Source: Klebsiella spallanzanii
GTDB lineage: Bacteria > Pseudomonadota > Gammaproteobacteria > Enterobacterales > Enterobacteriaceae
Reading direction: 5' to 3'
DNA: 24,000 nt
Assembly: GCF_902158555.1 (NCBI RefSeq)
Contig: NZ_CABGGS010000006.1
Location: 75,068-99,067 of the forward strand
The translations under genes were made by a program, and so were the position numbers. Of the stretch, positions 4,431 to 24,000 are shown piece by piece (positions within the stretch are counted from its first letter, which is position 1; every line of letters begins with the position of its first letter). Below the pieces are notes generated by a model. It was not told the DNA's origin and did no database searches. It worked only from the letters and a program-made list of their open reading frames with translations.

Positions 4431-4466
4431 CAGACATCTCCACAACAAGGAATGCCTTACTGTTGA

Positions 4467-4482: not shown

Positions 4483-4488
4483 CGCCAA

Positions 4489-4502: not shown

Positions 4503-4505
4503 ATC

Positions 4506-4521: not shown

Positions 4522-4544
4522 AAATTAATCTGATGGCAAGGGAA

Positions 4545-7903: not shown

Positions 7904-8337
7904 AACAGCGCGACGACCTCCTCCCGGCTGCTGGCGGCCCGCAGCTTAGTCATCGTTTCGTTATTATCGAGCAACGCGATAATCGCGCGGATCCCCTCCT
8001 CAATATGGGCATTGCTGTCCTGCGCGCCGAACATAATGACAATATCCGCCTTCTCGCTATCGGCAAACTGAATCGGTTTGTTCAGCACCACCAGGCTAAA
8101 ACAGTTACGCCTTACGCCGCATTCGGGCCTGGCGTGGGGGATCGCCACCCCTTCATCAAAAACGTAATACGCACCATGGTGCAGGGTATTATCAATCACC
8201 GCCCGGCCGTATTCTGCCGAGATATACCCTTTTGCGACCAGCGGACTGGCCGCCAGGTGAATCACCTTCTGCCAGTCGGACTCCGTGACGCCGACCTGAA
8301 TGGCATCGGCCTCAATAAGTAATTCTTTTATCGTCAT
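7900..8337 (-). CDS. PTS EIIA component, fructose/mannitol/ascorbate type (PTS_EIIA_2)
   Basis: 145 aa. The active-site region GVAIPHARPE and the overall length and pattern are typical of UlaC/SgcA/PtsN-type EIIA. A GGGAG Shine-Dalgarno lies 5 nt before the ATG. Confidence 0.8.
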   Translation of the reverse strand: MTIKELLIEADAIQVGVTESDWQKVIHLAASPLVAKGYISAEYGRAVIDNTLHHGAYYVFDEGVAIPHARPECGVRRNCFSLVVLNKPIQFADSEKADIVIMFGAQDSNAHIEEGIRAIIALLDNNETMTKLRAASSREEVVALL

Positions 8338-8360
8338 GATGACTCCCTAAGAATCTAATC

Positions 8361-8630
8361 CTAAATATTGCGGCGAATAACATTGCGCAACTCATCAATA
8401 CGAATAAAAAGCGCATCTATTTCTTGCCGATGTGTTTTGCTTTTGGCATACACCGACAGCGCCCGGTTATACATCAGCATTAACGCTTTCTGTACTTCGC
8501 CATTACCTGGGTTGCCCTGTAATTCGCCTTCCAGCCGGACTATTTCCTCCGCCAGCTGGCGGGACTGTTGGTCATAATCCTGCGGCGGATTATTTTCTTT
8601 TTTCCACAGCGTTTTCAAAGATTCAAACAT
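8361..8630 (-). CDS. Hypothetical 89-aa cytoplasmic protein, predicted helical hairpin; no family recognised
   Basis: Its ATG at 8630 is preceded by a strong GGAGGAG Shine-Dalgarno. It fits exactly into the gap between the aldolase and EIIA genes on the same strand. The sequence has two amphipathic segments separated by GNPGNG and a basic tail RNVIRRNI. Confidence 0.6.
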   Translation of the reverse strand: MFESLKTLWKKENNPPQDYDQQSRQLAEEIVRLEGELQGNPGNGEVQKALMLMYNRALSVYAKSKTHRQEIDALFIRIDELRNVIRRNI

Positions 8631-8687
8631 AGCGAGCTCCTCCCTGGCGAACTACAGGGCAACGGAATACCATTAAATAACGAAGGT

Positions 8688-9530
8688 TTATTTAAACAGA
8701 GCGATTTTTTCCATTAATACATGAGTGACCGCGTTATTCGCCGGAATTAAAAACTTGCGCACGCTGTCATTCACTTTGCCTTTTTCAAAGGTAGTTTTGC
8801 ATTGATCGACCCACTGGACGTTCATTTCCGTGCCGACATTCACTTTATTGATGCCCTCGGTAACGGCCAGGCGCATGTCCTCATCGCTGACGCCGGTACC
8901 GCCATGGAGCACTAACGGCACGCCGGTGGCGGCGCTAATTTCTTTCAGCCGCTGGTGCTGGATCTGCGCCTTGCCGGTATACAGGCCGTGTACCGTCCCC
9001 ACGGAGACCGCCAGCATATCGACCTGTGTCTCATCAACAAAGCGTTTGGCATCTTCCACCGTGGTAAAGCAGATATCTTCCGCAGCCACCGCTTTACCAT
9101 CTTCCGAGCCGCCGATAGCGCCAAGTTCGCCTTCTACCGTGATATTTCGCGGGCGCGCCATCTCTACCACTATCCGCGTATTGCCAATATTTTCCTCCAG
9201 CCCTAAATGGGAACCGTCGTACATTACGGAAGAAAACCCGGCATCCATTGCTGTTTCAATAGCGCTAATATCGGAGCAGTGATCCAGATGCAGGCAGGTC
9301 GGCACATTTTCACTTTCCGCTAATGAACAAACGGCATCCACCAGTAAACGATAACCAAGATATTCCGCCGTCCCGGTCGAGATTTGAATCATTAATGGGC
9401 TATTGCTTTTTTGCGCCGCTTTAAAAAAAGCGGGCAGCATTTCAATACAGTGCAAATTAAACGATCCAATGGCTTTAAATTTTCTTTCCTGCGCAATTTT
9501 CAGAATATCGTTGAAGTTATACAGACTCAT
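8688..9530 (-). CDS. Class II (metal-dependent) ketose-1,6-bisphosphate aldolase, GatY/KbaY/FbaA family
   Basis: CLHLDHCSD (Zn-binding HxDH motif), EGELGAIGG, AVSVGTVHG and PLVLHGGTG motifs are present. Start placed at ATG 9530 (MSLYNF), about 9 nt after GGGG. The alternative ATG at 9536 has only a 3-4 nt spacer. The 5' end overlaps the end of the EIIC gene. Confidence 0.85.
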   Translation of the reverse strand: MSLYNFNDILKIAQERKFKAIGSFNLHCIEMLPAFFKAAQKSNSPLMIQISTGTAEYLGYRLLVDAVCSLAESENVPTCLHLDHCSDISAIETAMDAGFSSVMYDGSHLGLEENIGNTRIVVEMARPRNITVEGELGAIGGSEDGKAVAAEDICFTTVEDAKRFVDETQVDMLAVSVGTVHGLYTGKAQIQHQRLKEISAATGVPLVLHGGTGVSDEDMRLAVTEGINKVNVGTEMNVQWVDQCKTTFEKGKVNDSVRKFLIPANNAVTHVLMEKIALFK

Positions 9531-10884
9531 GAACATTTTCCCCTTTTGGCTTCGCTGATTTACCGTTTACGAACCATGCCAGTGCGGCAACAAAAACAAT
9601 GAATAAGGCGACAAACAACCAGTTATTCTGGAAAGCGTGGCCTAATACCAGACCGGAACTGATCACGTCCGAATCGCTAAAGGTGACGCCGGTAAAGCCG
9701 TAGCTTTCCAGCATCGGCACCAGAATCGCAGGCAGGAAGGTGATAAACAGGCCATGAACCACGCCGCCAATCATCGCCCCGCGGCGGCCTCCCAGCGCGT
9801 TACCAAATACGCCCGCCGTACCGCCAGCAAAGAAGTTGGTTAACAGACCGGGCAGAATCATCGCCAGGCCGAACATCGGGAACACCAGCATGCCGATGAT
9901 GGAGCCGACGGTGGTCGCCAGGAAACCGACAATCACCGCATTGGGCGCATAGGGGAACAGAACCGGGCAATCCAGCGCGGGCTTGGCGTCCGGGACAATG
10001 CGCATTGCGATACCGCGAAATGCCGGAACCAGTTCATTAAGCAGTAAGCGAACGCCGCTGTAGAGCACGAAGACGCCCGCCACAAACTGAATGGACTGCA
10101 TAAAGGCGTACATCAGGTAATTAATACCGTTGGAGAACTGACCAATATATTCCGGGCCCGCCGCGACCGCCGGGATGAGGTACATCGGCACCATCACCAC
10201 CGCCATCGCGAGGTAGGTATCCTGGAGGAACTTAAAGTTATCCGGCAGTTCAAGGTCTTCCGTTGAGCGGGAACCTTTACCCACCACTTTCGCCACCGCC
10301 GCCTGAACAAGATAACCAATGGTACAGAAGTGCCCCAGCGCCACGTCATCAGAGTCGGTAATCCGCCTGACCACCGGCTGTGCCAGCGCGGGCATCAGCA
10401 CCGCCATTACGCCGCCGAAAATCCCGCCAGTTAAAATTAACGGCAGCCCGGTCAGTCCGGCTTTATAGCCAATCACCGCGCCAATAGTCGCCATCCATAG
10501 CAGCGCTTGCCCGGTCAGGAAGATATATTTCAGCGGCGTGAGGCGGGCGATAATAATATTGACGGCAAAGATCACCAGCAGCGTCAGCGCCACTTCAGAA
10601 CCTAATTCCCGATTGGCTAATCCGGCAATAGCGGCAACATCGGTAATGTAGCCTTTCATGCCAAATCCCTGGGTAAAGATATCGTTGAGGAACGTTAGCG
10701 TGGCGACAATAATGTTGATTCCGGCCATCATGATTAAGAAGCCGAGCAGCGTTTTAAACGTTCCTTCTGCCGTTTTGCCCGGTGATTTTTTTTGCAAAAT
10801 CAGGCCCAGCATCGCAATAAAGGCGATTAATATCGAAGCCTGACCGAGCAAGTCTTTGACGATAAACTCTACAAAGCTATTCAT
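9517..10884 (-). CDS. PTS EIIC permease, L-ascorbate (UlaA/SgaT) family
   Basis: 455-aa polytopic membrane protein with the size and N-terminal pattern of UlaA/SgaT-type EIIC. It is flanked by cognate UlaB-like EIIB. Its start overlaps the EIIB stop by 8 nt. Confidence 0.8.
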   Translation of the reverse strand: MNSFVEFIVKDLLGQASILIAFIAMLGLILQKKSPGKTAEGTFKTLLGFLIMMAGINIIVATLTFLNDIFTQGFGMKGYITDVAAIAGLANRELGSEVALTLLVIFAVNIIIARLTPLKYIFLTGQALLWMATIGAVIGYKAGLTGLPLILTGGIFGGVMAVLMPALAQPVVRRITDSDDVALGHFCTIGYLVQAAVAKVVGKGSRSTEDLELPDNFKFLQDTYLAMAVVMVPMYLIPAVAAGPEYIGQFSNGINYLMYAFMQSIQFVAGVFVLYSGVRLLLNELVPAFRGIAMRIVPDAKPALDCPVLFPYAPNAVIVGFLATTVGSIIGMLVFPMFGLAMILPGLLTNFFAGGTAGVFGNALGGRRGAMIGGVVHGLFITFLPAILVPMLESYGFTGVTFSDSDVISSGLVLGHAFQNNWLFVALFIVFVAALAWFVNGKSAKPKGENVHESV

Positions 10885-11191
10885 AGTCCGCTACCTTCAG
10901 GTTATGCTCTTTTAAGAATGCAACGATCTTAGTTTCAATCTCATCTTTATCCGTGAGCTTATTCAGTACGACGACGCGCTTAATTTCCTCCTCGCTGGCA
11001 TCGGCCGTTAATATATCGGCAAAGGTTTTTTGCGTCAGGATCATATCGGATTTAAATGCCCCAGCTTCAGAAACGGTGGTGTGTTCAATATGCGCCGGAA
11101 TTTCCAGTTTCTTTAAAACAGCTTTTGCCGTCATTTCAATGGCAAAGCTTGAACCGAGGCCGCAGCCACATACGCAAAGAATTTTTAGCAT
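10877..11191 (-). CDS. PTS EIIB component, UlaB/lactose-type (PTS_IIB) with N-terminal active-site Cys
   Basis: 104 aa from ATG at 11191, preceded by GAGGAG with a 7-nt spacer. MLKILCVCGCGLGSSFAIEM matches the UlaB signature (ILAVCGNGQGSS). Confidence 0.8.
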   Translation of the reverse strand: MLKILCVCGCGLGSSFAIEMTAKAVLKKLEIPAHIEHTTVSEAGAFKSDMILTQKTFADILTADASEEEIKRVVVLNKLTDKDEIETKIVAFLKEHNLKVADYE

Positions 11192-11202
11192 GTAGGGTCT
11201 CC

Positions 11203-12183
11203 TCAAATAATATTGAGTTGTTTGGCAAGTTTATAATGGTGTCCTTCGGTATCAACCAGACGTTTTTTCATACTAACTAAATCAATCGGAATCGGTTTGT
11301 TACTTGAATTAATTATAATGGCTTTATTTTTCATCCCGGACTGGATACAACGAACCACTTCGCTGGCCATAATCGTGCCCTGATAAATTTCTTCGCAGGT
11401 TGGGTCACCACTGCGTAAACCGTAGCCCACGATGGTTTTACGAATCCGTACGCCAATTCTCGGTTCAAGCTGCTTTATCATGGTATCAATGGCCCCCTGG
11501 AATCCGGGGGAGTACTCCCTGGTGTAGCCTTCGGAGCAGAGAATCACAACGCTGTTCTGCCTGGCCAGTTTCTGCTTTACGCGCTCGGCCAACGTTTCCA
11601 GCGGCATCTGTGATTCCGGGATAAGGGCAATATCAGCATTACATTTTATCGCCGACTGCAACGTTAGCTCTCCACAATAACCTCCTAATATTTCAACCAT
11701 AAATACGCGGCCCGGCAATGCTCTTCCGGTATTTCTTAAACGGGAGACTTCTTTAATAATCTGCTCACAAGCGGTAGAGAAACCAATGGTATAATCGCTA
11801 CCGTACACATCGTTATCAATCGTCATCCCAACGCCAAAACAGTTAATATCAAATTCGCTGAGGGTATTAAGAAACTGGAGGCTACCGTCACCGCCGGCCA
11901 TAATCAGCACATCAACACGCAGTGATTTAATTTTTTTGGCAATAACTTCATATTCACTACGCTGTAGTTTTCGGCTAGTACGTCCGGAGGTAATAATCGG
12001 AATAGCGGCAATCGAGAAATCGACCAGATCGCGCCAGGCGACCACTTGATGTTTTTTATCCAACAGTCCAGGTATTCCACCATTAAAAATGGTGATCTCA
12101 GCATTCGCCATTTTGGCAATCTGGAATATAAAATTATTAATTCCAGAGACATCTCCACCACTAATAACAATGCCAATTTTCAT
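11203..12183 (-). CDS. ATP-dependent phosphofructokinase-family (PfkA-type) sugar-phosphate kinase; divergent, substrate uncertain
   Basis: 326 aa from ATG at 12183, preceded by GGAGG. PfkA motifs are present: KIGIVISGGDVSGINN, LIMAGGDGSLQ, GVGMTIDNDV and TIGFSTA. However, VEILGGYCGELTL replaces the canonical VEVMGRYCGDLTL. The gene is very AT-rich. Confidence 0.8.
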   Translation of the reverse strand: MKIGIVISGGDVSGINNFIFQIAKMANAEITIFNGGIPGLLDKKHQVVAWRDLVDFSIAAIPIITSGRTSRKLQRSEYEVIAKKIKSLRVDVLIMAGGDGSLQFLNTLSEFDINCFGVGMTIDNDVYGSDYTIGFSTACEQIIKEVSRLRNTGRALPGRVFMVEILGGYCGELTLQSAIKCNADIALIPESQMPLETLAERVKQKLARQNSVVILCSEGYTREYSPGFQGAIDTMIKQLEPRIGVRIRKTIVGYGLRSGDPTCEEIYQGTIMASEVVRCIQSGMKNKAIIINSSNKPIPIDLVSMKKRLVDTEGHHYKLAKQLNII

Positions 12184-12654: not shown

Positions 12655-13101
12655 ATGGCAGCCCTTACAGCGAACTGTATTGACCTGAATATTCAGGGCA
12701 ATAGCGTTTATTCCATCCTCAAGCAGTTGGCGGACATAGCCTTTCATAATGGTTACGTCAGCGACCGTAATCAGTTTTTGCAAACGCTGTTGCTGCGCGA
12801 AAAGCTGCACTCTACCGGATTTGGTTCAGGCATCGCCGTTCCTCACGGCAAAAGCGCCTGCGTGAAGCAGCCCTTCGTGCTGTTTGCGCGTAAATCAGCA
12901 GATGTTGACTGGAAGGCCAGCGACGGCGAAGACGTCAACTGCTGGATCTGCCTCGGCGTGCCGCAAACCGGCGAGGACGATCAGGTCAAAATCATCGGCA
13001 CCTTGTGCCGCAAAATTATCCATCAGGATTTTATCAACCAGTTGAAACAGGGCGACGCCAACCAGGTACTTGCCCTGCTCAATCAGACCTTAACCTCATA
13101 A
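12655..13101 (+). CDS. frvA: PTS fructose-like EIIA component FrvA
   Basis: 148 aa, the same length as E. coli FrvA. It has the EIIA-2 active site GSGIAVPHGKS and a GGAG Shine-Dalgarno, and is first in a four-gene set with frvABXR order and sizes. Confidence 0.85.
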   Translation: MAALTANCIDLNIQGNSVYSILKQLADIAFHNGYVSDRNQFLQTLLLREKLHSTGFGSGIAVPHGKSACVKQPFVLFARKSADVDWKASDGEDVNCWICLGVPQTGEDDQVKIIGTLCRKIIHQDFINQLKQGDANQVLALLNQTLTS

Positions 13102-13111
13102 GGAAGCGGCT

Positions 13112-14557
13112 ATGGAGTCATCCTTACGTTTAGTGGCGATCACCAACTGTCCTGCGGGAATCGCCCACACCTATATGGTGGCGGAAGCGCTGGAGCAAAA
13201 AGCGCGTTCGCTCGGCCATACCATTAAAGTCGAAACCCAGGGTTCAAGCGGCGTGGAAAACCGGCTGACCAGTGAGGAAATTGCCGCCGCGGATTACGTG
13301 ATTCTGGCAACAGGCCGCGGCTTAAGCGGTGAAGACCGCGCGCGCTTCGCCGGGAAAAAGGTCTACGAGATCGCCATTTCTCAGGCGCTGAAAAATATTG
13401 ACCAGATTTTTATGCAGTTGCCTTCACATTCACAGCTGTTTGCCGCCGATAGTGGCGTCAAGCTGGGTAAACAGGATGTACAGCAGGGAAGCGTGATGAG
13501 CCACCTGATGGCGGGCGTTTCCGCCGCGCTGCCGTTTGTTATCGGCGGCGGTATTCTGGTCGCCATCGCCAATATGCTGGTGCAGTTCGGTTTACCCTAT
13601 ACGGATATGTCGAAAGGCGCGCCGTCTTTTACCTGGGTCGTCGAATCCATCGGCTATCTCGGTTTCACCTTTATGATCCCGATTATGGGCGCATACATCG
13701 CGTGGTCGATTGCCGATAAACCGGCGTTCGCCCCGGCGTTTCTGGTGTGCTATCTGGCGAACGATAAAGGATTGTTAGGTACCCAATCCGGTGCGGGATT
13801 TCTCGGCGCGGTCGTGCTGGGGCTGGCAATCGGCTACTTCGTGTTATGGTTTCGCAAGGTACGTCTCGGCAAGGCGCTTCAGCCGCTGCTCGGCTCGATG
13901 CTGATCCCGTTCGTCACTCTGCTGGTGTTTGGCGTGCTGACGTACTACGTCGTCGGACCAGTGATGTCCGACATCATGGGTGGTCTGCTGCACTTCCTGA
14001 ACACTATTCCGCCATCAATGAAAATGGGCGCAGCTTTCCTTGTTGGCGCAATGCTGGCGTTCGACATGGGCGGACCGATCAACAAAACCGCGTGGTTCTT
14101 CTGCTTCTCGCTGCTGGAAAAACATATCTATGACTGGTACGCCATCGTCGGCGTGGTGGCGCTGATGCCGCCCGTCGCCGCAGGCATCGCTACCTATTTA
14201 GCGCCAAAACTGTTTACCCAGCAGGAGAAGGCCGCCGCCAGCAGCGCGATTGTGGTCGGTGCAACCGTCGCCACCGAACCGGCGATCCCTTACGCGCTGG
14301 CCGCGCCGCTGCCGATGATTACCGCCAATACACTCTCCGGAGGCATTACCGGCATGCTGGTGATCGCCTTCGGAATCAAACGTCTTGCGCCGGGTTTAGG
14401 TATCTTTGACCCGCTGATCGGCCTGATGTCGCCTGTAGGTTCATTTTATCTGGTGCTGGCAATAGGCCTGGCGCTAAACATTTCGCTAATCATCATTCTG
14501 AAAGGATTGTGGCTCAAACGTAAAGCCGCGCAGCAGGAGCTTGCCCATGAACATTGA
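13112..14557 (+). CDS. frvB: PTS fructose-like EIIBC component FrvB
   Basis: 481 aa. The N-terminal EIIB(Fru) domain has the active-site motif ITNCPAGIAHTYM, followed by a polytopic EIIC(Fru) domain. Confidence 0.85.
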   Translation: MESSLRLVAITNCPAGIAHTYMVAEALEQKARSLGHTIKVETQGSSGVENRLTSEEIAAADYVILATGRGLSGEDRARFAGKKVYEIAISQALKNIDQIFMQLPSHSQLFAADSGVKLGKQDVQQGSVMSHLMAGVSAALPFVIGGGILVAIANMLVQFGLPYTDMSKGAPSFTWVVESIGYLGFTFMIPIMGAYIAWSIADKPAFAPAFLVCYLANDKGLLGTQSGAGFLGAVVLGLAIGYFVLWFRKVRLGKALQPLLGSMLIPFVTLLVFGVLTYYVVGPVMSDIMGGLLHFLNTIPPSMKMGAAFLVGAMLAFDMGGPINKTAWFFCFSLLEKHIYDWYAIVGVVALMPPVAAGIATYLAPKLFTQQEKAAASSAIVVGATVATEPAIPYALAAPLPMITANTLSGGITGMLVIAFGIKRLAPGLGIFDPLIGLMSPVGSFYLVLAIGLALNISLIIILKGLWLKRKAAQQELAHEH

Positions 14558-15617
14558 GTTACTACAGCAGTTATGCGAAGCCAGCGCCGTCAGCGGTGAT
14601 GAACAGGAAGTCCGCTCGATTTTGATCAATACGCTGGAACCGTGCGTGGATGAAATCACCTTTGACGGCCTCGGCAGCTTTGTCGCCCGCAAAGGGACGC
14701 GCGGGCCGAAAGTCGCCATCGTCGGGCATATGGATGAAGTGGGCTTTATGGTGACGCATATCGACGAGAGCGGTTTTATCCGTTTCACCACCATTGGCGG
14801 GTGGTGGAACCAGTCGATGCTTAATCATCGGGTCACCGTTCGCACTCGCACGGGGGCTAAAATACCCGGCGTGATCGGCTCCGTGGCACCACATGCCCTG
14901 ACGGAAAAGCAGAAACAGCAGCCGCTGTCGTTTGACGAGATGTTTATTGATATTGGCGCAAGCTGCCGCGCAGAGGTGGAAAAACGCGGCATTGCGATCG
15001 GCGATTTCATCAGCCCGGAAGCAAACTTTGCCCGCTGGGGCGAAGATAAGATCGTTGGCAAAGCGCTGGATAACCGCATCGGCTGTGCCCTGATGGCGGA
15101 GCTTTTACAGGCAGTGGATAACCCGGAGATCACCCTGTACGGCGTTGGCAGCGTGGAAGAAGAGGTCGGGCTGCGCGGGGCGCAAACCTCGGCGGAGCAT
15201 ATCAAGCCCGACGTGGTTATCGTGCTGGATACCGCCGTTGCGGGCGACGTGCCCGGCATCGACAGCATCAAATATCCGCTGAAACTCGGCGATGGTCCGG
15301 GGCTGATGCTGTTTGATAAACGCTATTTCCCCAACCAGCAGCTGGTCGCCGCGTTAAAACAGAGCGCCGGAGACAGCGGTGCTCCATTGCAGTTCTGCAC
15401 CATGAAAACCGGGGCAACGGACGGCGGACGTTACAATGTGATGGGCGGTGGTCGTCCGGTGGCTGCGCTGTGCCTGCCGACCCGCTATCTGCACGCCAAC
15501 AGCGGTATGATTTCAGCGACGGACTATAAGGCGTTGTTCACCCTGGTGCGCGAACTGCTGACCTCGCTGACAGCGGATAAAGTGAAAGCCTTCACCGACT
15601 TTCGCCAGGTGAGATAA
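14547..15617 (+). CDS. frvX: M42-family metallo-aminopeptidase/endoglucanase-like protein FrvX
   Basis: 356 aa from ATG at 14547, with AGGAG 8 nt upstream. The track start at 14541 is a TTG. M42 features are present: VGHMDEVGFMV, GKALDNRIG, GSVEEEVGLRGA. It overlaps the frvB end by 11 nt. Confidence 0.85.
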   Translation: MNIELLQQLCEASAVSGDEQEVRSILINTLEPCVDEITFDGLGSFVARKGTRGPKVAIVGHMDEVGFMVTHIDESGFIRFTTIGGWWNQSMLNHRVTVRTRTGAKIPGVIGSVAPHALTEKQKQQPLSFDEMFIDIGASCRAEVEKRGIAIGDFISPEANFARWGEDKIVGKALDNRIGCALMAELLQAVDNPEITLYGVGSVEEEVGLRGAQTSAEHIKPDVVIVLDTAVAGDVPGIDSIKYPLKLGDGPGLMLFDKRYFPNQQLVAALKQSAGDSGAPLQFCTMKTGATDGGRYNVMGGGRPVAALCLPTRYLHANSGMISATDYKALFTLVRELLTSLTADKVKAFTDFRQVR

Positions 15618-17362
15618 TGCTATCGGAACGCCAGTTAAAGGTCGCGGAGATTCTCGAACAGCAGCCCTGCCTGCTGGGCGAACTGGCGCGACAAACTGGC
15701 GTATCGAGCCGCACTATCCTGCGCGATATTGATTACCTCAACTTTACCTTCAGCGGTAAGGCCCGCATTCACCCCGGCGGCGGAGCGGGCTATCAGCTGG
15801 ATATTGTCGACCGGCGCGGCTATTTCCAGCTTTTACAACGTCATGATAATGATGACCGGTTGCTGGCGATATTACTGCTTAACCCATTTACTACCCGCGT
15901 GCAGCTCGCCGCGACGCTGAATTTACCGGAGACCTGGGTCGCCGACAGGTTGCCGCGCCTGAAGCAGCGCTACGCACGCGCCTTCTGCATCCAGAGCCGT
16001 CCCGGCGTCGGGTACTTTATTGATGAGCCTGAAGATAAGCGCATTATCCTGCTGGCGAATCTGCTGAAAAAAGATCCACTGTTGATTCCGCTGCCGGGCA
16101 TGACGCGCGAGAACATCGATCGGCTTCAGCAGGCCTGTGAAAATCTGCATGCTTTTGCGCTGGTTTCCGGGGAGTATCTCGCAAGCGTGGTGCTTGCCGT
16201 TTATGCCCTGCGCAACCAGCTCGTCGCCGCCTGGCCTGAGTATCAGCATAGTGCGCTTAACAATGCGGTGGAGCAGGCGGGAATTTATCTCGGTGGCGAG
16301 GCGTTCAGCACGCTGGTTGGTTTGTTAGAAATGCAGCAACAGCATACCGCTACGATTTCCGAAGAGGGCGTCGTGTCGCTGCTGAAATCCCTGCCCGGCG
16401 TTGCCCCGCTGAATATTATCGACGAACAGCTAGTCGAAAATATTACCGGTCACCTCCTGCGCTGCGTCGCCGCCCCGGTGTGGATCCCGGAGCATCGTCA
16501 GGGCAGCATGAATAACCTGAAGGCCGCCTGGCCCGCCGCCTTCGACATGAGCCTGCGTTTTATCGCCCGGCTTCGCGAACAGTTGGATATTCCTCTGTTC
16601 GACAGCGACCTGATTGGGCTCTATTTTGCCTGCGCTCTGGAGCGGCATCAGAACGAGCGCCAGCCGATTATTTTGCTCTCCGATCAGAACGCCATCGCCA
16701 CCATTAACCAGCAGGCGATTGAGCGAGACGTGTTGAACTGTCGAGTGATCATTGCACGTAGCGCAGGTGAAGTGAGCGCTATCAGCGAAGAAATCACCCC
16801 GCTGTTAATCATCAATAATAGCCACTATCTGCTTGATGACGCTTTAAAAAATGTTCTTACTATCAAAAACATTATCACCGCAGCCGGTACCGAGCAGATT
16901 AAAAACTTCCTCGCCACGGCCTTTATCCGCCAGCAGCCTGAGCGTTTCTTTTCACAGCAGGGCAGCTTCCATTACACTAATGTGTTGGGCGAAAGCTGGC
17001 AGGAGATTATCGGCCGGATCTGCGGACAGCTTGTGGCGCAGAACCATATCACCGAAGACGAGGCGCTGCGCATCTGCGCCAGGGAACATGAGGGTGAAAA
17101 CCTGATTGTGAATCATCTGGCGATCCCCCACTGCTGGAGCGAGCAGGAGCGCCGCTTTCGCGGATTCTTTATCACCCTCGCGTGCCCCGTGCAGGTCAAT
17201 AACGAGCCGGTCAGCCATGTGCTCATCGCCTGCGCCGCCGCCGATGCGCGGCATGAGTTAAAAATCTTCAGCTATTTATCCAGCGTGCTGTGCCGTCACC
17301 CGGCAGAGACCATTGCGGGGCTGGCCGGGTATGAAGCGTTTATTACGCTGCTCCGCCAGTAA
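15617..17362 (+). CDS. frvR: FrvR-type regulator: N-terminal HTH plus C-terminal PTS EIIA-2-like domain
   Basis: 581 aa. HTH LGELARQTGVSSRTILRDIDYLN is at the N-terminus, and the C-terminal region NHLAIPHCWSE resembles an EIIA-2 phosphorylation site. It has a TAATG overlap with frvX. Confidence 0.8.
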   Translation: MLSERQLKVAEILEQQPCLLGELARQTGVSSRTILRDIDYLNFTFSGKARIHPGGGAGYQLDIVDRRGYFQLLQRHDNDDRLLAILLLNPFTTRVQLAATLNLPETWVADRLPRLKQRYARAFCIQSRPGVGYFIDEPEDKRIILLANLLKKDPLLIPLPGMTRENIDRLQQACENLHAFALVSGEYLASVVLAVYALRNQLVAAWPEYQHSALNNAVEQAGIYLGGEAFSTLVGLLEMQQQHTATISEEGVVSLLKSLPGVAPLNIIDEQLVENITGHLLRCVAAPVWIPEHRQGSMNNLKAAWPAAFDMSLRFIARLREQLDIPLFDSDLIGLYFACALERHQNERQPIILLSDQNAIATINQQAIERDVLNCRVIIARSAGEVSAISEEITPLLIINNSHYLLDDALKNVLTIKNIITAAGTEQIKNFLATAFIRQQPERFFSQQGSFHYTNVLGESWQEIIGRICGQLVAQNHITEDEALRICAREHEGENLIVNHLAIPHCWSEQERRFRGFFITLACPVQVNNEPVSHVLIACAAADARHELKIFSYLSSVLCRHPAETIAGLAGYEAFITLLRQ

Positions 17363-17543: not shown

Positions 17544-20147
17544 ATGGCGCTGTCGGCGAAAGAAAAGTTATTTCACAAAATACTCACCCATTATGCGCAG
17601 AAACCCGCGGGCTTCACGGCTCAGGACTGCGCGGACTTTATGCAGGTTAACCGCAGCGTCATCAGTCATTACCTCAACAGACTGTGCGACGATGGCCATC
17701 TCAGTAAAGAAAATACCCGCCCGGTCCGCTTCTTTGTGCAGCAAAATGGCGTAAAAAACGCGCAGGCGTCTCGCATAGTGTCGAAAAAGCACGATGCCTT
17801 TCAGCAGTTGATCGGCGCACAGGGCAGCCTGGCTGAAGCTATCGCGCTTTGTCGCTCGGCGGTGGATTATCCCGGCGACGGTCTGCCTGTCCTGCTCTCC
17901 GGAGAAAGCGGTGTCGGGAAAAGCCATCTGGCGGCGCTGATTTATCAATATGCCGTCGAGCGCAGCGTGATCGCGGCAGATAAACCCTTTGTGGAGCTTA
18001 ACTGTGCCGATTACGCCAACAACCCGGAGCTGCTTTCGGCGACGCTTTTCGGCTATACGCGCGGTGCGTTCACCGGGGCCGACCGCGAAAAGCGTGGGGC
18101 CTTTGATGATGCGGATGGCGGATTTCTGTTCCTCGATGAGGTCCATCGGCTATCAGCTGAGAACCAGGAAAAATTATTCCTGTTTATGGACAAAGGCTAT
18201 TTCTATCGTCTTGGCGATAACCGCACGCGCCATCCGGCGTCGCTGCGCTTTATCTTCGCCACCACGGAGAATATCGACACCGTCCTGCTCAACACCTTCC
18301 GCCGACGCATCCCGGTTCGCGTAACGCTGCCCAACTATATTTCGCGCCCGCTTACCGAGCGCGTCGCTCAGGTTAGCCATTTTTTGCATCAGGAAGCGCT
18401 CAGCCTGCGCCGAAATATCCATCTCGATAATCAGCTGATGCATCAGTGGGTCACCTCGCCGGTGCGCGGCAATATCGGTGAGTTAAAAAATCAGATCAAA
18501 GTGATGTGCGCCAGCGCCTGGAGCGATAATCGCGATGCCGACGTCATTACGCTACAAGACCACTCATCCGGCGGCGAAATAATTAGCATTACCGCCAACC
18601 CTCATGATGAAGTACTGAATGCCAGCCAACTGCTGCCAAAAGCGATGCGCGATGAGGTTATTTTTCGCGACTTTTGCCACAGCGGTAACGTGCTGTTACT
18701 GAATCGCAAAATGGAGCAATTGCTAACCACGGTTAGCGGCACGGTTGCCGCCGAGTCGCTGTACAGCGGTTATATCTGGCAGAACACCGTTCATGCCCTG
18801 GAGGAGCTGGAGAGTTTGACCGGCATCTCCTGTAGCCTGGAGATCCGCAAAGCCGTCTGGCTCTGCGTCAGCTATGCGCTGCATGCTCCTCAGGAGGCGG
18901 TTAAAGCTGGCGAACTGCAGGCGATTGCCGACTATGTTTCCGCAAAGGCGCGGCTGCTCGCCGAGGAGTGCCTCGCTTTGCTGAGCAAACATGTCACCCG
19001 CCAGCCGCTGCCCCTGCTGCTTCCGCTATTAAGCTGCGCTTTTCATACCCTGGCCGGTGAAGACGACCCCATTCAGGGCATTATCGTTTCCCACGGTCGC
19101 GCCACCGCATCGAGCATTGCCGGTATCGCCAATCAGTTGACCGGCGGCTACTACTTTAAAGCCTTCGATATGGCCAACGCGACCTCCACCAGAGAAATCA
19201 TCGACCTGCTGATCGCCCACGTTTCCCGCCTTAAGCAAGGAGCCGGGCTGATTATCCTGGTGGATATGGGATCGCTGAAAGAGATCTACGAAGAGATTAA
19301 GCTCCACCTGCATGGTGAACTGTTGGTTATCAACAACGTCAGCACCGCTATGGCGCTGGATATTGCCGCCAAAATTCAGGACAAGCTGTCGATGGAAGCG
19401 ATTATTGAGAGCGCCAAAGGGGCCTATGAGGTTGAAACTCGCTACTACGCCGGGATTTTACCGGGGAATAAAATCATTATCTCCTGCATCTCCGGCGAAG
19501 GGATCTCCCGCAAGCTGAAAGATATCGTCCAGCGATTTCTGGCGCAGGAAGAGATCGACATCATTACGATGGAGTATGACGATCTGAAATGGAAAATCGC
19601 CCACGCTGACCCGGCGCTGAACGGTACCAGGCTTATCATCACCACGACCGATCTGGAAGCGGGCTATATTCCACTGCTAAGCGTAGAGCAGTTGATTAAA
19701 GAAAAGTCGCTGGTGTTAAAACGCGATTACTTCAACGGGCTGCTGATGGAAGGTGGTCTGGAGCCGATGATTGACGAGGTAGTGAAGCTGTTTACCGTCG
19801 AAGGCGTCGCCAGCCGTCTCAACTTCCTCAATCCGGTGGTGATTATTGATGAAGTCGAAGCGGTGATTAAACAGTATGAATCCTTCTACAAAATCCATTT
19901 TGAAAGCTACCTGCGCATCAATCTGTTTATGCATATCGCGCTGATGATCGAGCGAGTGATGGTGAATAACGGCGTGCGCCATCGCGAAGAAGCGGGGCTG
20001 ACGCTGGAACAGCAGGCTTTCGTCGCCGTCCATGACACCTTTTTCCTGGCGCTGAACCGCAAATACAACATTACCCTGCCGCTCACCGAAGTGCTGATGA
20101 TTTATGAAATCATGGAGCCGTGGATCGCTTTTGACCCAAGCAATTAA
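17544..20147 (+). CDS. LevR-type sigma-54-dependent enhancer-binding protein (HTH, AAA+, PRD, EIIA-Man-like, EIIB-Gat-like, PRD)
   Basis: 867 aa. Walker A is LLSGESGVGKSHLA (nt 17901-17924). The sigma-54 contact loop GAFTGA is intact (nt 18063-18080). Walker B is FLFLDEVHRL. These are followed by GIIVSHGRATASS (EIIA-Man-type His, about residue 517), KIIISCISGEG (EIIB-like Cys, about residue 648) and a C-terminal PRD-like LFMHIALMIERV (His about residue 798). Confidence 0.85.
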   Translation: MALSAKEKLFHKILTHYAQKPAGFTAQDCADFMQVNRSVISHYLNRLCDDGHLSKENTRPVRFFVQQNGVKNAQASRIVSKKHDAFQQLIGAQGSLAEAIALCRSAVDYPGDGLPVLLSGESGVGKSHLAALIYQYAVERSVIAADKPFVELNCADYANNPELLSATLFGYTRGAFTGADREKRGAFDDADGGFLFLDEVHRLSAENQEKLFLFMDKGYFYRLGDNRTRHPASLRFIFATTENIDTVLLNTFRRRIPVRVTLPNYISRPLTERVAQVSHFLHQEALSLRRNIHLDNQLMHQWVTSPVRGNIGELKNQIKVMCASAWSDNRDADVITLQDHSSGGEIISITANPHDEVLNASQLLPKAMRDEVIFRDFCHSGNVLLLNRKMEQLLTTVSGTVAAESLYSGYIWQNTVHALEELESLTGISCSLEIRKAVWLCVSYALHAPQEAVKAGELQAIADYVSAKARLLAEECLALLSKHVTRQPLPLLLPLLSCAFHTLAGEDDPIQGIIVSHGRATASSIAGIANQLTGGYYFKAFDMANATSTREIIDLLIAHVSRLKQGAGLIILVDMGSLKEIYEEIKLHLHGELLVINNVSTAMALDIAAKIQDKLSMEAIIESAKGAYEVETRYYAGILPGNKIIISCISGEGISRKLKDIVQRFLAQEEIDIITMEYDDLKWKIAHADPALNGTRLIITTTDLEAGYIPLLSVEQLIKEKSLVLKRDYFNGLLMEGGLEPMIDEVVKLFTVEGVASRLNFLNPVVIIDEVEAVIKQYESFYKIHFESYLRINLFMHIALMIERVMVNNGVRHREEAGLTLEQQAFVAVHDTFFLALNRKYNITLPLTEVLMIYEIMEPWIAFDPSN

Positions 20148-20264
20148 CCCTTCGCGGCCAGCGTCGACTGGCCGCTCTCGACACTGCATAAGCGGGCAAT
20201 TCCAACACTGAAAACAGCGTCCAAAAAACAAATTTTATTCTTTAAAAACATACAAATAAAAACA

Positions 20265-20280
20265 TGGCACGCTGATTGCA
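20265..20280 (+). promoter_or_regulatory. Sigma-54 (RpoN) -24/-12 promoter TGGCAC-GCTGA-TTGCA
   Basis: Exact match to the TGGCAC-N5-TTGCW consensus. It lies 41 bp upstream of the EIIA-Man ATG and directly downstream of a sigma-54 EBP gene. It is preceded by a long A/T tract (20221-20262). Confidence 0.9.
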
Positions 20281-20320
20281 AAATCCCTGGCAGATACCTG
20301 AAAAGATTAAGGAACGCGAA

Positions 20321-20803
20321 ATGCGAGAGATGTACATCGCAACTCATGGCCGCTATGCCGAAGGGATTGTCTCAGCATTGAATTTGCTGATTGGTGACGA
20401 TCATGGCGTCACGCCTGTCTGCGCCTATTGCGGCGAAATTGGTTCGACAGCTGAACTGGCTACGCGCTTTGACGCTTTCGCCCGCCAGGCTGCCGGTCGC
20501 GGCAACGAACTGGTGCTGTTTACCGATATGCCCGGCGGCAGCGTCAACAATACCGCCGTGCAGATGATGGTCAAATATCCCCACGCTCACGTTATCAGCG
20601 GCGCCAACCTGATTATGTTGATGGAGTTTTGCATGTCGGAACATGCCGATACCGCGCAGCGGCTTCAGGATGCGGTTGCCGCCGCCAGTGGGGCGATGCA
20701 GTACATGAATCTGTTGCCAGAAATCATCTCGGCGCGCCAGGCAACGCAGCAGCAGACCCAGGACGATATTGACGATTTTTTTGCCGGGGAGGAAAACCTG
20801 TGA
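20321..20803 (+). CDS. PTS mannose-family EIIA component
   Basis: 160 aa from ATG at 20321, with TAAGGAA 6 nt upstream. MREMYIATHGRYAEG carries the EIIA-Man active-site His motif, and the tail is acidic and Q-rich. The track start at 20276 is a TTG inside the sigma-54 promoter and was rejected. Confidence 0.85.
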   Translation: MREMYIATHGRYAEGIVSALNLLIGDDHGVTPVCAYCGEIGSTAELATRFDAFARQAAGRGNELVLFTDMPGGSVNNTAVQMMVKYPHAHVISGANLIMLMEFCMSEHADTAQRLQDAVAAASGAMQYMNLLPEIISARQATQQQTQDDIDDFFAGEENL

Positions 20804-21978
20804 CTATCGCACTCGAAGTGCTTGATGCCCGTTACCTCACCTCTCAGCCGGGGTTAGATAATGTCTGGCTTAATGAGGCCATCAGTGAAGTTCTGATCCA
20901 ACTCGATGCCATGCTGCCGCGCTTTACGGCAACTTTTCCCGCCGCCAGCGCCACCGATGGGCGCTACGAAGACGTGGAAAAAGTCGACTGGACCGAGGGA
21001 TTCTGGACCGGGATGCTGTGGCTCGCCTGGGAAGTGACCGGCGATGAAAAATACCGCGCGGTGGCGGAAAGCCTGCTCGACAGCTTTGAAGAGCGGCTCG
21101 ATAAGCAGATCAAAGTGGATACCCACGACCTCGGCTTTCTCTATCTGCTCTCCTGCGTTAATGCCTGGAAGCTCACCGGCAACCTGCGCGCGCGCGAACT
21201 CGCCCTGCGCGCCGCCGAGCAGCTGTATCGCCGCTTTAACGCCACGGCGGGCGTGATTCAGGCATGGGGAGATTTAAACGACCCGGCGCGTCAGGGGCGG
21301 ATGATCATCGACTGCAACCTCAATGTCCCCCTGCTGTTTTGGGCTGCCAGTGAAACCGGAAATCAGCAGTGGCGCGAAGCCGCCAGCCGTCATCTGGCGC
21401 AGGCCGCACGCTACCTGGTGCGTGAAGACGCGTCGACCTTTCATACATTTTATCTGGATATAAACAGCGGCCAGCCGCTGCGCGGCGATACGCATCAGGG
21501 GTTCAGCGACAGCTCCTGCTGGTCGCGCGGTCAGGCGTGGGGAATTTACGGTTTCGCGCTGGGATATGCCCATACCGGCGATGCCTGGCAACCCGAGCTC
21601 TCTCGCCGCCTGGCACACTATTTTCTTAACCGCCTACCGGACGATTTTGTCTGCTACTGGGATCTGATCTTTACCGCTGAAGATAACCAGTATCGGGACA
21701 CATCTGCGGCGGCGATCGCCGCCTGCGGTCTGGCGGAATTGCTGAAGCTGCTGCCGCTAACCGACCCGCTGCGTCATGCCTACGCCAACGCTGTCGACTT
21801 GATGATGCGCAATTTACGCGAGCGCTACTTTGCCCACGCTCAGGACGGCCTGCTGCGCGAAGGCGTTTACAACTTTGGCCGCAATATGGGTATTAACGAA
21901 CCAAACCTCTGGGGCGATTATTTTTATTTCGAAGCCCTGGTTCGCCTTTCCCGCGTCTGGGCCCCCTACTTTTGCTAA
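20800..21978 (+). CDS. Glycoside hydrolase family 88 (unsaturated glucuronyl / unsaturated chondroitin disaccharide hydrolase); cytoplasmic
   Basis: 392 aa. GTG start with a GGGGAGGA Shine-Dalgarno and a GTGA overlap with the EIIA stop. GH88-like segments are present: DWTEGFWTGMLWLAW, DTHDLGFLYL, IIDCNLNVPLL, CWSRGQAWGIYGF and LWGDYFYFEAL. No signal peptide. Confidence 0.75.
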   Translation: MTIALEVLDARYLTSQPGLDNVWLNEAISEVLIQLDAMLPRFTATFPAASATDGRYEDVEKVDWTEGFWTGMLWLAWEVTGDEKYRAVAESLLDSFEERLDKQIKVDTHDLGFLYLLSCVNAWKLTGNLRARELALRAAEQLYRRFNATAGVIQAWGDLNDPARQGRMIIDCNLNVPLLFWAASETGNQQWREAASRHLAQAARYLVREDASTFHTFYLDINSGQPLRGDTHQGFSDSSCWSRGQAWGIYGFALGYAHTGDAWQPELSRRLAHYFLNRLPDDFVCYWDLIFTAEDNQYRDTSAAAIAACGLAELLKLLPLTDPLRHAYANAVDLMMRNLRERYFAHAQDGLLREGVYNFGRNMGINEPNLWGDYFYFEALVRLSRVWAPYFC

Positions 21979-21990
21979 CTGGAGCTACAC

Positions 21991-22488
21991 ATGATTTCTT
22001 TAGTACGTATTGACGATCGTTTGATCCACGGACAGGTTGCCGTGGTCTGGACCAAGCATCTGGGCGTGAACCGCATTCTGGTCGCCAATGACCAGATCGT
22101 GAATAACGAAGTGCAAAAAATGTCACTGCGCATGGCGGCTCCCGATACCGCCAAGTGCGCCATTATGGCGGTGAAAGATGCGGGCGATGTGCTTAACGAC
22201 CCGCGTTCAGAAGCCATGAAAATTATGGTGATCGTAAACAATTCTGCCGATGCCCGCCGTCTGGTCGAGCAGGTGTCGGGGATAAAAACCCTGAACGTCG
22301 CCAATTTTGGACGCATTACCGACAATTTGGCGGCGAAAAAGCGCATAAGTGACACCGTCTACGTGACGCCGGAAGATGTGGCGGATTTCCACGCCATCGC
22401 CGACCGCGGCGTGGCCGTTGAATATCAGGTCCTGCCTTCTCACCCGGTGAAAAACCTGATTGAGATGCTGGATAACGCCGCCAGCTAA
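21991..22488 (+). CDS. PTS mannose/sorbose-family EIIB component
   Basis: 165 aa. The N-terminal MISLVRIDDRLIHGQV is the canonical EIIB-Man phospho-His motif. GGAG Shine-Dalgarno. Confidence 0.9.
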   Translation: MISLVRIDDRLIHGQVAVVWTKHLGVNRILVANDQIVNNEVQKMSLRMAAPDTAKCAIMAVKDAGDVLNDPRSEAMKIMVIVNNSADARRLVEQVSGIKTLNVANFGRITDNLAAKKRISDTVYVTPEDVADFHAIADRGVAVEYQVLPSHPVKNLIEMLDNAAS

Positions 22489-22499
22489 GCGAGGTTGCT

Positions 22500-23300
22500 A
22501 TGTTAACGTCTGCATTACTTGTTGCGCTGGTGATGTATATCGCCAAATTCGCCGACCACACTCTAGGGCAACCGTTAATCGAACGACCGCTAATCTGCGG
22601 TGCGATGGTCGGCTTTGTGCTGGGTGATTTCGAACAGGGGATTATTATCGGCGCCACGCTGGAGCTCATTTTTCTTGGCACGATTACCATCGGCGGTTCC
22701 GTCCCGGCCGATCTGGCAGTAGGTTCGGTACTGGCGACCGCCTTCACTATCCTGACAAAAGCAGAACCTGCCGTCGCAGTGGCGCTGGCACTTCCCATCA
22801 GCCTGCTGGCGGTGTTCGTCTATCAGGTATTAAAACTGGTCTATACCGCGCTGGTCGAGAAATACGATGCATTGCTTGAAGAGGGGCGCGACCGCGCCGC
22901 GCTTGGCATCACGCTAGGTATGACGATGTTTTACGGCGTGCCGTTCGCGGTGCTGGCGTTCTTCGGCATTCTGTTCGGTACTGATGTGATCCGCAGTTTA
23001 GTGGAAAGCATTCCGGGTACGGTGATGCGTGGAATGACCGCCGTTGGGGGCATTTTACCTGCGCTGGGCTTCGCTATTCTTTTAAAAGCACTATGGAACC
23101 GCAATATTGCCGCCTTTTTCTTTATCGGCTTTGCGATGGCGGCCTATCTGCAACTGCCAATTATGGGCATCGCGATTATCGCTGCTTCCGTTGCCGTCTA
23201 TCTCTGTTTCAACGAATTCAACCAGTTGAAAGTGAACAAACAATCAGTAACCGCCGCCCCGGCATCGGTTGACGATAAGGATGGGTTCTTCAATGACTGA
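22500..23300 (+). CDS. PTS mannose-family EIIC component
   Basis: 266-aa polytopic membrane protein with the size and pattern of ManY/AgaC-type EIIC. Its stop overlaps the EIID start (ATGACTGA at 23293-23300). Confidence 0.85.
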   Translation: MLTSALLVALVMYIAKFADHTLGQPLIERPLICGAMVGFVLGDFEQGIIIGATLELIFLGTITIGGSVPADLAVGSVLATAFTILTKAEPAVAVALALPISLLAVFVYQVLKLVYTALVEKYDALLEEGRDRAALGITLGMTMFYGVPFAVLAFFGILFGTDVIRSLVESIPGTVMRGMTAVGGILPALGFAILLKALWNRNIAAFFFIGFAMAAYLQLPIMGIAIIAASVAVYLCFNEFNQLKVNKQSVTAAPASVDDKDGFFND

Positions 23301-24000
23301 TATCCAACACAGCGCGTCTGGCGCGAATGATGATAGCAAAAGCGAAAAAAAGATGTTCCGTCAGCTTTTTTTTCGCCAGTTCCAGTTACTGGGCTCCATG
23401 AACTTCACCCGCATGGAAGGGTTGAGCTACGGCTGGATCCTTGCGCCGCTGCTAAAAAAAATCTATACCGGCAATCCGCACGGCTATATTGAGTCGCTAA
23501 AACGCAATAGCCAGTTCTTTAATACCAACCAGCATCTGGCTCCGTTTATTATGGGCCTGACGCTATCGATGGAGAAAGAGAACGCCACGAACCCGAACTT
23601 TGATACTTCCAGTATTAACGGCATCAAAGTGGCCTTAATGGGACCGTTCGCTGGCGTGGGTGATTCATTCTTTTATGGCGTACTGCGTATTATCGCAACG
23701 GGGATTGCTATCGGCCTGGCGTCACAAGGAAATCCGCTGGGGCCACTGCTGTTCCTGCTCATTTATAATATTCCCAGCTACCTGCTGCGCTATTACGGCG
23801 GGGTAATGGGCTATCGGCTGGGCTCGAAATATATTGCAGAGGCAACGCAGTCGGGACTGCTCTCCTGCATCACCAAAGCCTCAGCGATGATGGGTTTGAT
23901 GATGGTGGGGGCGATGAGCGCCAGCATGGTGAAGTTTACCACCACCTTTAAAACGACGATTGCCGGGCAGCCCTTTGTGCTACAGGAGATCCTCGACAAA
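23293..24000 (+). CDS. PTS mannose-family EIID component (partial; continues past the right edge)
   Basis: Hand translation from ATG at 23293 gives MTDIQHSASGANDDSKSEKKMFRQLFFRQFQLLGSMNFTRMEGLSYGWILAPLLKKIY...NTNQHLAPFIMGLTLSMEKE...MGPFAGVGDSFFYG, typical of ManZ/AgaD EIID. The frame is open for 236 codons to the window end. It is not in the ORF track because no stop is reached. Confidence 0.85.
   Translation, partial: MTDIQHSASGANDDSKSEKKMFRQLFFRQFQLLGSMNFTRMEGLSYGWILAPLLKKIYTGNPHGYIESLKRNSQFFNTNQHLAPFIMGLTLSMEKENATNPNFDTSSINGIKVALMGPFAGVGDSFFYGVLRIIATGIAIGLASQGNPLGPLLFLLIYNIPSYLLRYYGGVMGYRLGSKYIAEATQSGLLSCITKASAMMGLMMVGAMSASMVKFTTTFKTTIAGQPFVLQEILDK

Follow-up and report, generated by a model that had tools for sequence, protein, structure and literature searches.

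Six codirectional genes on the plus strand of a 24,000-nucleotide stretch of the Klebsiella spallanzanii genome (contig NZ_CABGGS010000006.1; the whole stretch is called the window below) appear to encode and control a pathway for unsaturated acidic disaccharides. The genes, at positions 17544-24000, specify a putative sigma-54 enhancer-binding protein (EBP) and, downstream of it, the enzyme II (EII) components of a mannose-family phosphotransferase system (PTS) with a hydrolase of family GH88 embedded among them, in the order EIIA-GH88-EIIB-EIIC-EIID. We propose that they probably form an RpoN-dependent operon for the catabolism of disaccharides that are produced by lyases and have a 4,5-unsaturated glucuronyl residue as their nonreducing end. 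The core of this proposal, a PTS combined with a hydrolase for an unsaturated glucuronide, we regard as very likely from the encoded proteins. For the parent glycan we lean, with moderate confidence, toward the glycosaminoglycan (GAG) type. A preliminary description of this DNA had arrived at a similar proposal, and every feature that it described was recovered at its reported position.

A mannose-family PTS with an embedded hydrolase

All four components of a mannose-family EII are encoded in the operon, and each matches its Pfam model past the cutoff: EIIA (20321-20803; 160 amino acids; EIIA-man, 2.2e-13), the sorbose/mannose-family EIIB (21991-22488; 165 amino acids; PTSIIB_sorb, 8.3e-45), EIIC (22500-23300; 266 amino acids; EII-Sor, 4.9e-66), and EIID (23293-24000; EIID-AGA, 3.6e-78). 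The last of these is cut by the end of the window, and its full length of 280 amino acids was read in the K. spallanzanii contigs L001 and L083. The histidines predicted to be phosphorylated are present in both EIIA (H9) and EIIB (H13). We also considered whether the subunits are equivalogs of the Aga PTS for GalNAc and GalN, and rejected this identity since the NCBIfam scores stay below their cutoffs (AgaF, 64.6 versus 130; AgaW, 178 versus 300; AgaE, 106 versus 500). The longest open reading frame (ORF) for EIIA starts with TTG at 20276 and overlaps the promoter described below; we take as the true start the ATG at 20321, a codon that is kept in all orthologues and has AAGGAA in front of it. 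The tight coupling of the genes claimed earlier can be read directly in the DNA, where the GTG start of the GH88 gene lies over the EIIA stop codon (GTGA) and the ATG of EIID over that of EIIC (ATGACTGA).

The embedded gene (20800-21978, plus strand) encodes a protein of 392 amino acids that is identical to WP_142981459.1. With 73.2 bits against a cutoff of 26.6, its match to the Pfam model Glyco_hydro_88 passes but is modest, and it is the search against solved structures that is decisive for its predicted assignment as an unsaturated glucuronyl hydrolase (UGL). Full-length matches were obtained to the UGL of Streptococcus agalactiae (SagUGL; PDB 2zzr/3anj, 5.6e-105, query residues 11 to 390) and to that of Bacillus sp. 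GL1 (1vd5, 4.8e-101), compared with only 3.5e-53 for the Pedobacter GH88 protein (3wiw). The catalytic pair is formed by D110 in the motif HDLGF and D171 in IIDCN, which align to D115/D175 of SagUGL and D88/D149 of the Bacillus enzyme; the second aspartate was located in the alignment by the entry for the D175N mutant (3ani). Both residues are invariant in 86/86 aligned GH88 homologues. The N terminus, MTIALEVLDARYLTSQPG, has no signal-peptide features. Taken together, these properties indicate a cytoplasmic enzyme with the full catalytic pair of a UGL, so that the assignment to GH88 and the intracellular location proposed in the preliminary description both held up under the profile search and the inspection of the catalytic aspartates and the N terminus.

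A LevR-type activator and a conserved sigma-54 promoter

The first gene of the region (17544-20147, plus strand) encodes an EBP of 867 amino acids whose Pfam matches, all past their cutoffs, comprise Sigma54_activat (1.8e-40), EIIA-man (5.9e-08), and PRD (1.6e-06). By direct reading, its AAA+ domain contains a Walker A motif (GESGVGKS) at residue 120, the GAFTGA loop at 174, and DEVH at 198. Three phosphorylatable residues follow, namely, H517 in the EIIA-Man-like motif VSHG, C648 in the EIIB-Gat-like motif ISCISGEG, and H797 in the C-terminal PRD; the EIIB-Gat-like part was recognized from its motif, with no profile match. These motifs and the regulatory histidines and cysteine are kept in the orthologues of Kluyvera, “Martelella alba,” Leclercia, Erwinia, and Vibrio. 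No Pfam match to a helix-turn-helix (HTH) domain was found in residues 1 to 90. Domains and motifs thus agree with the earlier reading of a LevR-type sigma-54 activator, with its three phosphorylatable modules, next to a mannose-family PTS. The best NCBIfam match of the EBP is DagR, at 435.7 bits far under the cutoff of 1400. This rules out the DgaR/DagR equivalog, and we therefore consider the protein a LevR/DgaR-type paralogue rather than DgaR itself, as judged from its profile scores.

The EBP gene and the EIIA gene are separated by 173 nucleotides (nt). Within this gap, 41 nt upstream of the EIIA start codon, lies a sigma-54 (-24/-12) promoter sequence on the plus strand, TGGCACgctgaTTGCA (20265-20280), and this site (TGGCACGCTGATTGCA) is the sole exact match to TGGCAC-N5-TTGCW in the 24-kb window. 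By itself such a motif is weak evidence, because 1.29 matches per window are expected by chance when one mismatch is allowed; its weight comes from its position and conservation. The promoter is invariant in five diverged intergenic regions from orthologous loci, which on average agree in just 67% per alignment column. Moreover, GG-N10-GC elements precede the first PTS gene in the EBP-linked loci of Erwinia, Phytobacter, Vibrio, and Clostridium puniceum; two Firmicute loci with a two-component system instead of an EBP lack such an element in front of their PTS. The intergenic region between EBP and EIIA contains no recognizable sigma-70-like site. The “perfect” promoter of the preliminary description is thus exact, unique in the window, and invariant in the five loci compared. 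A second match to the -24/-12 pattern, with one mismatch, occurs inside the GH88 gene (TGGCACACTATTTTCT, 21611-21626); it is most likely a chance match because the GC of its -12 element is lost.

Two other elements of the gap lie upstream of the promoter. Just 3′ of the EBP stop codon, an inverted repeat on the plus strand (20154-20175) forms a perfect 8-bp hairpin, GCGGCCAG-N6-CTGGCCGC. A stem of different sequence occupies the same spot behind the EBP gene in Klebsiella sp. MISC125 and Kluyvera. The terminator scan did not call this hairpin, which has no T-run and is therefore not a canonical intrinsic terminator; it probably separates the regulator from the operon, as a terminator or an insulator. 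Between 20180 and 20220, about 60 to 100 nt upstream of the -24 element, we observed a conserved TCGACACTG block, for which CAGCGTCCA forms an imperfect inverted partner; an A/T-rich tract comes next. This segment is a candidate site for activator binding and DNA bending.

The hydrolase and the transporter form one module

We found exact matches of the GH88, EBP, and EIIB proteins to K. spallanzanii entries, and, when clustered at 90% identity, these proteins group with hundreds of sequences from K. michiganensis, K. grimontii, K. oxytoca, and K. huaxiensis, together with some from K. quasipneumoniae, Citrobacter, Leclercia, and Kluyvera. The locus is not an E. coli feature, as megablast found it absent from 5,426 complete E. 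coli genomes. When 185,579 species genomes were scanned for GH88 and the best 80 GH88 loci were inspected, an EBP and a PTS stood beside the hydrolase in only five of them, from Klebsiella sp. MISC125, Kluyvera, Phytobacter, “M. alba,” and a Leclercia metagenome-assembled genome (MAG). With EIIC as the query, further matches came from Erwinia, Pantoea, a Vibrio MAG (78% identity), and Enterocloster bolteae and E. lavalensis (59 to 60%), with the Vibrio and Enterocloster homologues located in the same five-gene module. The EIIA-GH88-EIIB-EIIC-EIID block is conserved in Klebsiella, Kluyvera, Phytobacter, “M. alba,” Leclercia, Erwinia, Vibrio, and Enterocloster.

Ten PTS-linked GH88 proteins were compared with 75 stand-alone ones, the common enterobacterial GH88s included, and proved monophyletic in 100/100 neighbor-joining bootstraps. 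Because the PTS-linked enzymes form a clade, the hydrolase and the transporter must have moved together as one module. In contrast, Bacillus-type GH88 genes (contigs L010 to L018) have no PTS within 10 kb and fall outside this clade. A recent horizontal transfer of the operon into Klebsiella was considered and rejected, as base composition gives no signal of it (GC content of 0.53 to 0.56, as in the flanks).

These observations bear on a further explanation, in which the PTS would import an unrelated amino-sugar conjugate or another substrate, in the manner of Salmonella dga and gfr, and the GH88 homologue would have a role other than that of a UGL. LevR-type operons of enteric bacteria are known for serving amino-sugar derivatives, the best curated match of the EBP is DagR, and the PTS subunits match Aga-type models, albeit below threshold. 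However, the DagR score is far from that of an equivalog, and the hydrolase matches proven UGLs over its full length, at about 1e-105, with both catalytic aspartates kept. It has, moreover, coevolved in several phyla with the PTS, the two forming a module, and genes of the dga/gfr kind for a deaminase, dehydratase, or deglycase are absent from the operon. We therefore consider this explanation very improbable and retain the unsaturated-glucuronide operon as the favored reading.

Comparison with characterized PTS/UGL clusters and LevR systems

The closest described counterparts of the module are the GAG clusters of streptococci. In S. agalactiae, gbs1890 encodes EIIA, gbs1889 UGL, gbs1888 EIIB, gbs1887 EIIC, and gbs1886 EIID (PMC6837340); in Streptococcus pneumoniae, the GAG-PTS is encoded by spr0291, 0293, 0294, and 0295, and the UGL by spr0292 (PMC6837340). 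The streptococcal PTS has been shown to import the unsaturated hyaluronan disaccharide (PMC6837340). [quoted passage not shown] Two other statements of that description have to be revised in this light. The position of the hydrolase between EIIA and EIIB, which it called unusual, is the order of S. agalactiae (PMC6837340) and is also found in Erwinia, Vibrio, and Enterocloster. Nor does this order, being the streptococcal one, imply that the hydrolase sees a phosphorylated substrate; that idea instead follows from the combination of PTS import with a cytoplasmic hydrolase, and the streptococcal papers likewise assume a phosphorylated substrate for UGL.

The systems differ in their control and in their surroundings. 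A LacI/GalR-type repressor is the regulator in streptococci, whereas the Klebsiella operon has a LevR-type sigma-54 EBP and a -24/-12 promoter. The Klebsiella host is Gram negative, and its relatives carry a linked porin of the KdgM/OmpL type. Unlike the streptococcal cluster, the Klebsiella operon lacks linkage to a hyaluronate lyase, to DhuI/DhuD, and to KdgK/KdgA, both within the window and in the downstream region of Klebsiella sp. MISC125. The core module is orthologous to a characterized one, with all of its components belonging to known families. It departs from the streptococcal system in its class of regulator, in the porin of the outer membrane, and in having lost a linked lyase and linked genes of the uronate pathway.

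On the regulatory side, the operon resembles LevR/lev of Bacillus subtilis and DgaR/dga and GfrR/gfr of Salmonella, with which its EBP shares the AAA+ domain with GAFTGA, the EIIA-Man-like His, the EIIB-Gat-like Cys, and the PRD His; here too, the regulator adjoins a mannose-family PTS operon behind a GG-N10-GC promoter. The cargo is different, namely, a GH88 enzyme for an unsaturated uronide in Klebsiella versus levanase or the dga/gfr enzymes in the other systems. The hydrolase further resembles the UGL of Bacillus sp. GL1, the founding GH88 enzyme, over its full length, with the same catalytic residues and a His at the position of residue 236 of SagUGL.

Downstream genes in relatives and the fate of the operon

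In all K. spallanzanii Logan contigs that encode the identical GH88 or EBP protein, the sequence stops 96 bp past EIID, at the same base in independent samples. The break lies in a GC-rich palindromic element that resembles a repetitive extragenic palindromic (REP) sequence (…GGAGGCGGCGCGTTGCGCCTGT; L083, 16593-16688) and that continues in Klebsiella sp. MISC125 (L003, 13337-13440). The common end looks like an assembly break at a repeat, which hides the downstream gene, and for this reason the genes beyond EIID had to be deduced from Klebsiella sp. MISC125 and other relatives.

In Klebsiella sp. MISC125, whose GH88 protein is 93% identical, the next gene encodes a 232-amino-acid porin of the KdgM family with a signal peptide, and the core genes fdhD and fdoGH come after it. 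This porin, which in relatives stands after EIID and thus beyond the end of the window, resembles the acidic-(oligo)saccharide porins KdgM, KdgN, NanC, and OmpL and scores 282 bits against the NCBIfam OmpL cutoff of 288. A KdgM/OmpL-type acidic-sugar porin with a signal peptide is located downstream of the module in 5/5 complete Enterobacterales loci (L003, 13605-14303; L004, 16560-17393; L006, 15539-16237; L007, 14548-15243; L089, 12677-13375), the intervening genes differing. A homologue of D-2-hydroxyacid dehydrogenases is inserted in three loci, and those of “M. alba” and Erwinia have an extra Cof-type sugar phosphatase. The search for kdu, dhu, or kdg genes downstream of the operon, suggested in the preliminary description, was negative in the nearest complete genome, which has the OmpL-like porin and fdhD/fdo in this place.

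It could be asked on these grounds whether K. spallanzanii carries the operon in a cryptic or decaying state, as an inherited island for which no usable substrate is supplied. There are no lyase or kdu/dhu genes nearby, and the 2-hydroxyacid dehydrogenase, HAD phosphatase, and PL35 genes of relatives are missing from the Klebsiella version. On the other hand, six of the six ORFs are intact and translationally coupled, hundreds of K. oxytoca-complex contigs encode identical or nearly identical proteins, conservation extends to the promoter and to the catalytic and regulatory residues, and the GC content equals that of the surrounding DNA. Decay is accordingly hard to credit, and we continue with the reading of a functional operon; since K. 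spallanzanii has no linked lyase, other organisms or an unlinked lyase would have to produce its substrate.

Which glycan supplies the disaccharide?

Within the proposed operon, GAG-type disaccharides with no or little sulfate, that is, unsaturated hyaluronan, chondroitin, or heparosan units, are the most likely substrates. Besides the porin, this view draws on the Kluyvera locus (L004, 13385-19558), where four genes past EIID encode the D-2-hydroxyacid dehydrogenase homologue, a homologue of polysaccharide lyase family PL35, a longer KdgM-family porin, and an autotransporter. The PL35 homologue, seen only in this locus, has 620 amino acids including a signal peptide and matches GAG lyases of the PL35 family (8khv, 2.3e-64; 9o3q, “PL35 chondroitinase,” 1.5e-59). 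Enzymes of this family cleave hyaluronan, chondroitin sulfate, and heparan sulfate (PMC12088678, PMC11262172). In Clostridium puniceum (L091, 1607-20798), a LevR-type sigma-54 EBP drives a related EIIABCD set whose EIIC is 48% identical, and the locus contains SDR, RpiB/DUF3666, PfkB, and aldolase genes, corresponding to a DhuD-, DhuI-, KdgK-, and KdgA-like set, as well as a heparinase II/III-like protein, a GH88 enzyme, and a large secreted choline-binding protein (1438 amino acids) with an alginate-lyase domain. By gene content, the porin, the PL35 homologue, and the C. puniceum set fit an acidic, lyase-generated oligosaccharide, and several of them fit GAGs specifically.

Several findings weigh against a GAG and make the sugar attached to the uronate uncertain. 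The closest Firmicute modules, in Enterocloster bolteae (L087, 1-15221) and on a metagenomic contig (L090, 4965-17493), are under the control of a histidine kinase paired with a response regulator of the AraC type, and both, with GH88 proteins 57 to 60% identical, are flanked by GH43, DUF2264/BcGHD, and HAD phosphatase genes. The former additionally encodes a type I phosphomannose isomerase (PMI) and a protein that matches only “Ulvan_lyase” Pfam models (N/C); the latter contains a DhuI-like RpiB/DUF3666 gene. It is because of the GH43, DUF2264, PMI, and ulvan-lyase-like neighbors that the attached sugar is in doubt, and their presence suggests that the Firmicute modules may serve a different, possibly plant- or algal-type, non-GAG glucuronide. 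Among the Enterobacterales, the Leclercia locus adjoins an MFS-GH127-GH43 set, Erwinia has GH43 and HAD genes by the porin, and most hosts of the module are plant or soil associated. The window and the region downstream of the operon in Klebsiella sp. MISC125 hold no lyase or kdu/dhu/kdg genes. Furthermore, the Klebsiella EIIA, which finds its best PDB match in 3mtq (1.6e-15), is only distantly similar to the EIIA that belongs to the GAG-PTS in S. agalactiae (4tkz, 6e-7). In the hydrolase, R236, S365, S368, and K370 of SagUGL align to H232, N358, R361, and M363. We take these SagUGL residues, whose roles were reportedly described by Nakamichi et al. in 2011, to be those that recognize sulfate, and because they are replaced, the fine specificity of the Klebsiella enzyme presumably differs from that of the streptococcal one.

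These points are consistent with an explanation that keeps the same machinery but assigns it a non-GAG unsaturated glucuronide as its natural substrate. Candidates are products that lyases release from the side chains of plant arabinogalactan proteins or gum arabic (Rha-GlcA-Gal), from polymers of the xanthan, gellan, or ulvan type, or from bacterial capsules or exopolysaccharides that contain GlcA and are cut by phage or bacterial lyases. GH88 enzymes recognize the unsaturated uronate, and the UGL of Bacillus sp. GL1, an equally good structural match, accepts several aglycones and acts on gellan and xanthan fragments as well as on those of GAGs. Against this explanation, the only lyase physically linked to the module in an enterobacterial locus is the PL35 homologue, and the characterized members of PL35 are GAG lyases. 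All experimentally studied clusters of a mannose-family PTS and a UGL are GAG clusters (PMC6837340, PMC9067506). A 1,6-linked GlcA-Gal unit would, in addition, block the usual C-6 phosphorylation site. Finally, the GH43 genes are a weak argument for a conserved functional link, since those of Leclercia and Erwinia are 67% identical to each other but that of Enterocloster, at 25 to 27% identity to them, is not orthologous, so that its adjacency may be coincidence. No homology was found between the Kluyvera PL35 homologue and the ulvan lyase-like protein of Enterocloster, and the latter has no PDB match. On balance, a non-GAG substrate seems to us possible but rather unlikely. Of the earlier proposal of GAG disaccharides, then, the unsaturated uronide stands and the GAG part draws support from the PL35 homologue of Kluyvera and from the porin in 5/5 Enterobacterales loci, while the identity of the attached sugar is weakened by the neighbors of the Firmicute modules.

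Proposed pathway and implications

Under the favored reading of an operon for GAG-type unsaturated disaccharides, the acidic disaccharide would cross the outer membrane via the KdgM/OmpL-type porin that relatives encode just downstream. It would then be taken up by EIICD and phosphorylated at its reducing-end sugar by EIIA~P and EIIB~P. In the cytoplasm, the GH88 enzyme is predicted to hydrate the C4=C5 vinyl ether, which would yield the unsaturated uronate, opening to DHU, and a sugar 6-phosphate. DHU may subsequently pass to unlinked enzymes of the KduI/KduD/KdgK/Eda type. When substrate is lacking, phosphoryl groups could back up from EIIB to the PRD of the EBP and switch the activator off, and HPr-dependent phosphorylation of its EIIA-like domain might tie activity to the carbon status of the cell, as in B. 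subtilis LevR.

It is tempting to speculate further on the loop at residues 358 to 363 of the hydrolase (window positions 21871-21888), which presumably corresponds to the 6-sulfate-binding loop of SagUGL. The ten PTS-linked GH88s have the sequence GVYN[FY]GR[NGD]MGI or a close variant in this place, and Arg361 is invariant among them. As a clean signature of PTS linkage this residue was rejected, as eight stand-alone Paenibacillus-type GH88s also have Arg there. The PTS-linked clade might consist of dedicated phospho-disaccharide hydrolases in which Arg361 binds the 6-phosphate added by the PTS, and the sigma-54 operon might then allow the K. oxytoca complex to cross-feed on unsaturated GAG disaccharides that lyase producers set free in the gut, as a lineage-specific colonization trait; we put this forward as a doubtful, tentative extension.

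In the literature we found no experimental description of this locus in Enterobacteriaceae, the gene being used there only as a species marker for K. oxytoca in loop-mediated isothermal amplification (LAMP). According to a 2022 review, the GAG machinery of gut Proteobacteria is poorly known. If confirmed, the operon would give the streptococcal GAG-PTS/UGL pathway its first described counterpart in a Gram-negative organism and would extend the LevR-type sigma-54 regulon in enteric bacteria by a new class of cargo. The K. oxytoca complex, which draws interest as an opportunist and also for the colonization resistance that it provides in the gut, would gain a defined, testable route to acidic glycan fragments derived from the host or the diet. 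Confirmation would also settle whether PTS-linked UGLs act on 6-phosphorylated disaccharides, a step only assumed in streptococci. Since all of the components are of known types, the gain would be in physiology and ecology, not in mechanism.

Other features of the window

Upstream of the operon, between a phosphofructokinase (PFK) gene and the EBP gene, lies a block that resembles frvABXR (12655-17362), with EIIA, EIIBC, an M42 peptidase-like FrvX, and an FrvR-like regulator with HTH and EIIA-2 domains. Kluyvera sp. lacks the frv block, and its EBP gene stands immediately behind the PFK gene, which is why we interpret the block as an insertion or deletion between close relatives. The minus strand contains, at 349-5540, a raffinose-type cluster of a LacI-family regulator, a GH36 alpha-galactosidase, a LacY-type permease, and a hexapeptide acetyltransferase. 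Also on the minus strand, genes for a galactitol-type PTS (EIIA-2, EIIB, and EIIC-GAT), a class II aldolase, and a PfkA-type kinase (7900-12183) form what looks like an operon for a ketose-phosphate pathway, whose EIIC-GAT gene is split into two ORFs in sample L086.

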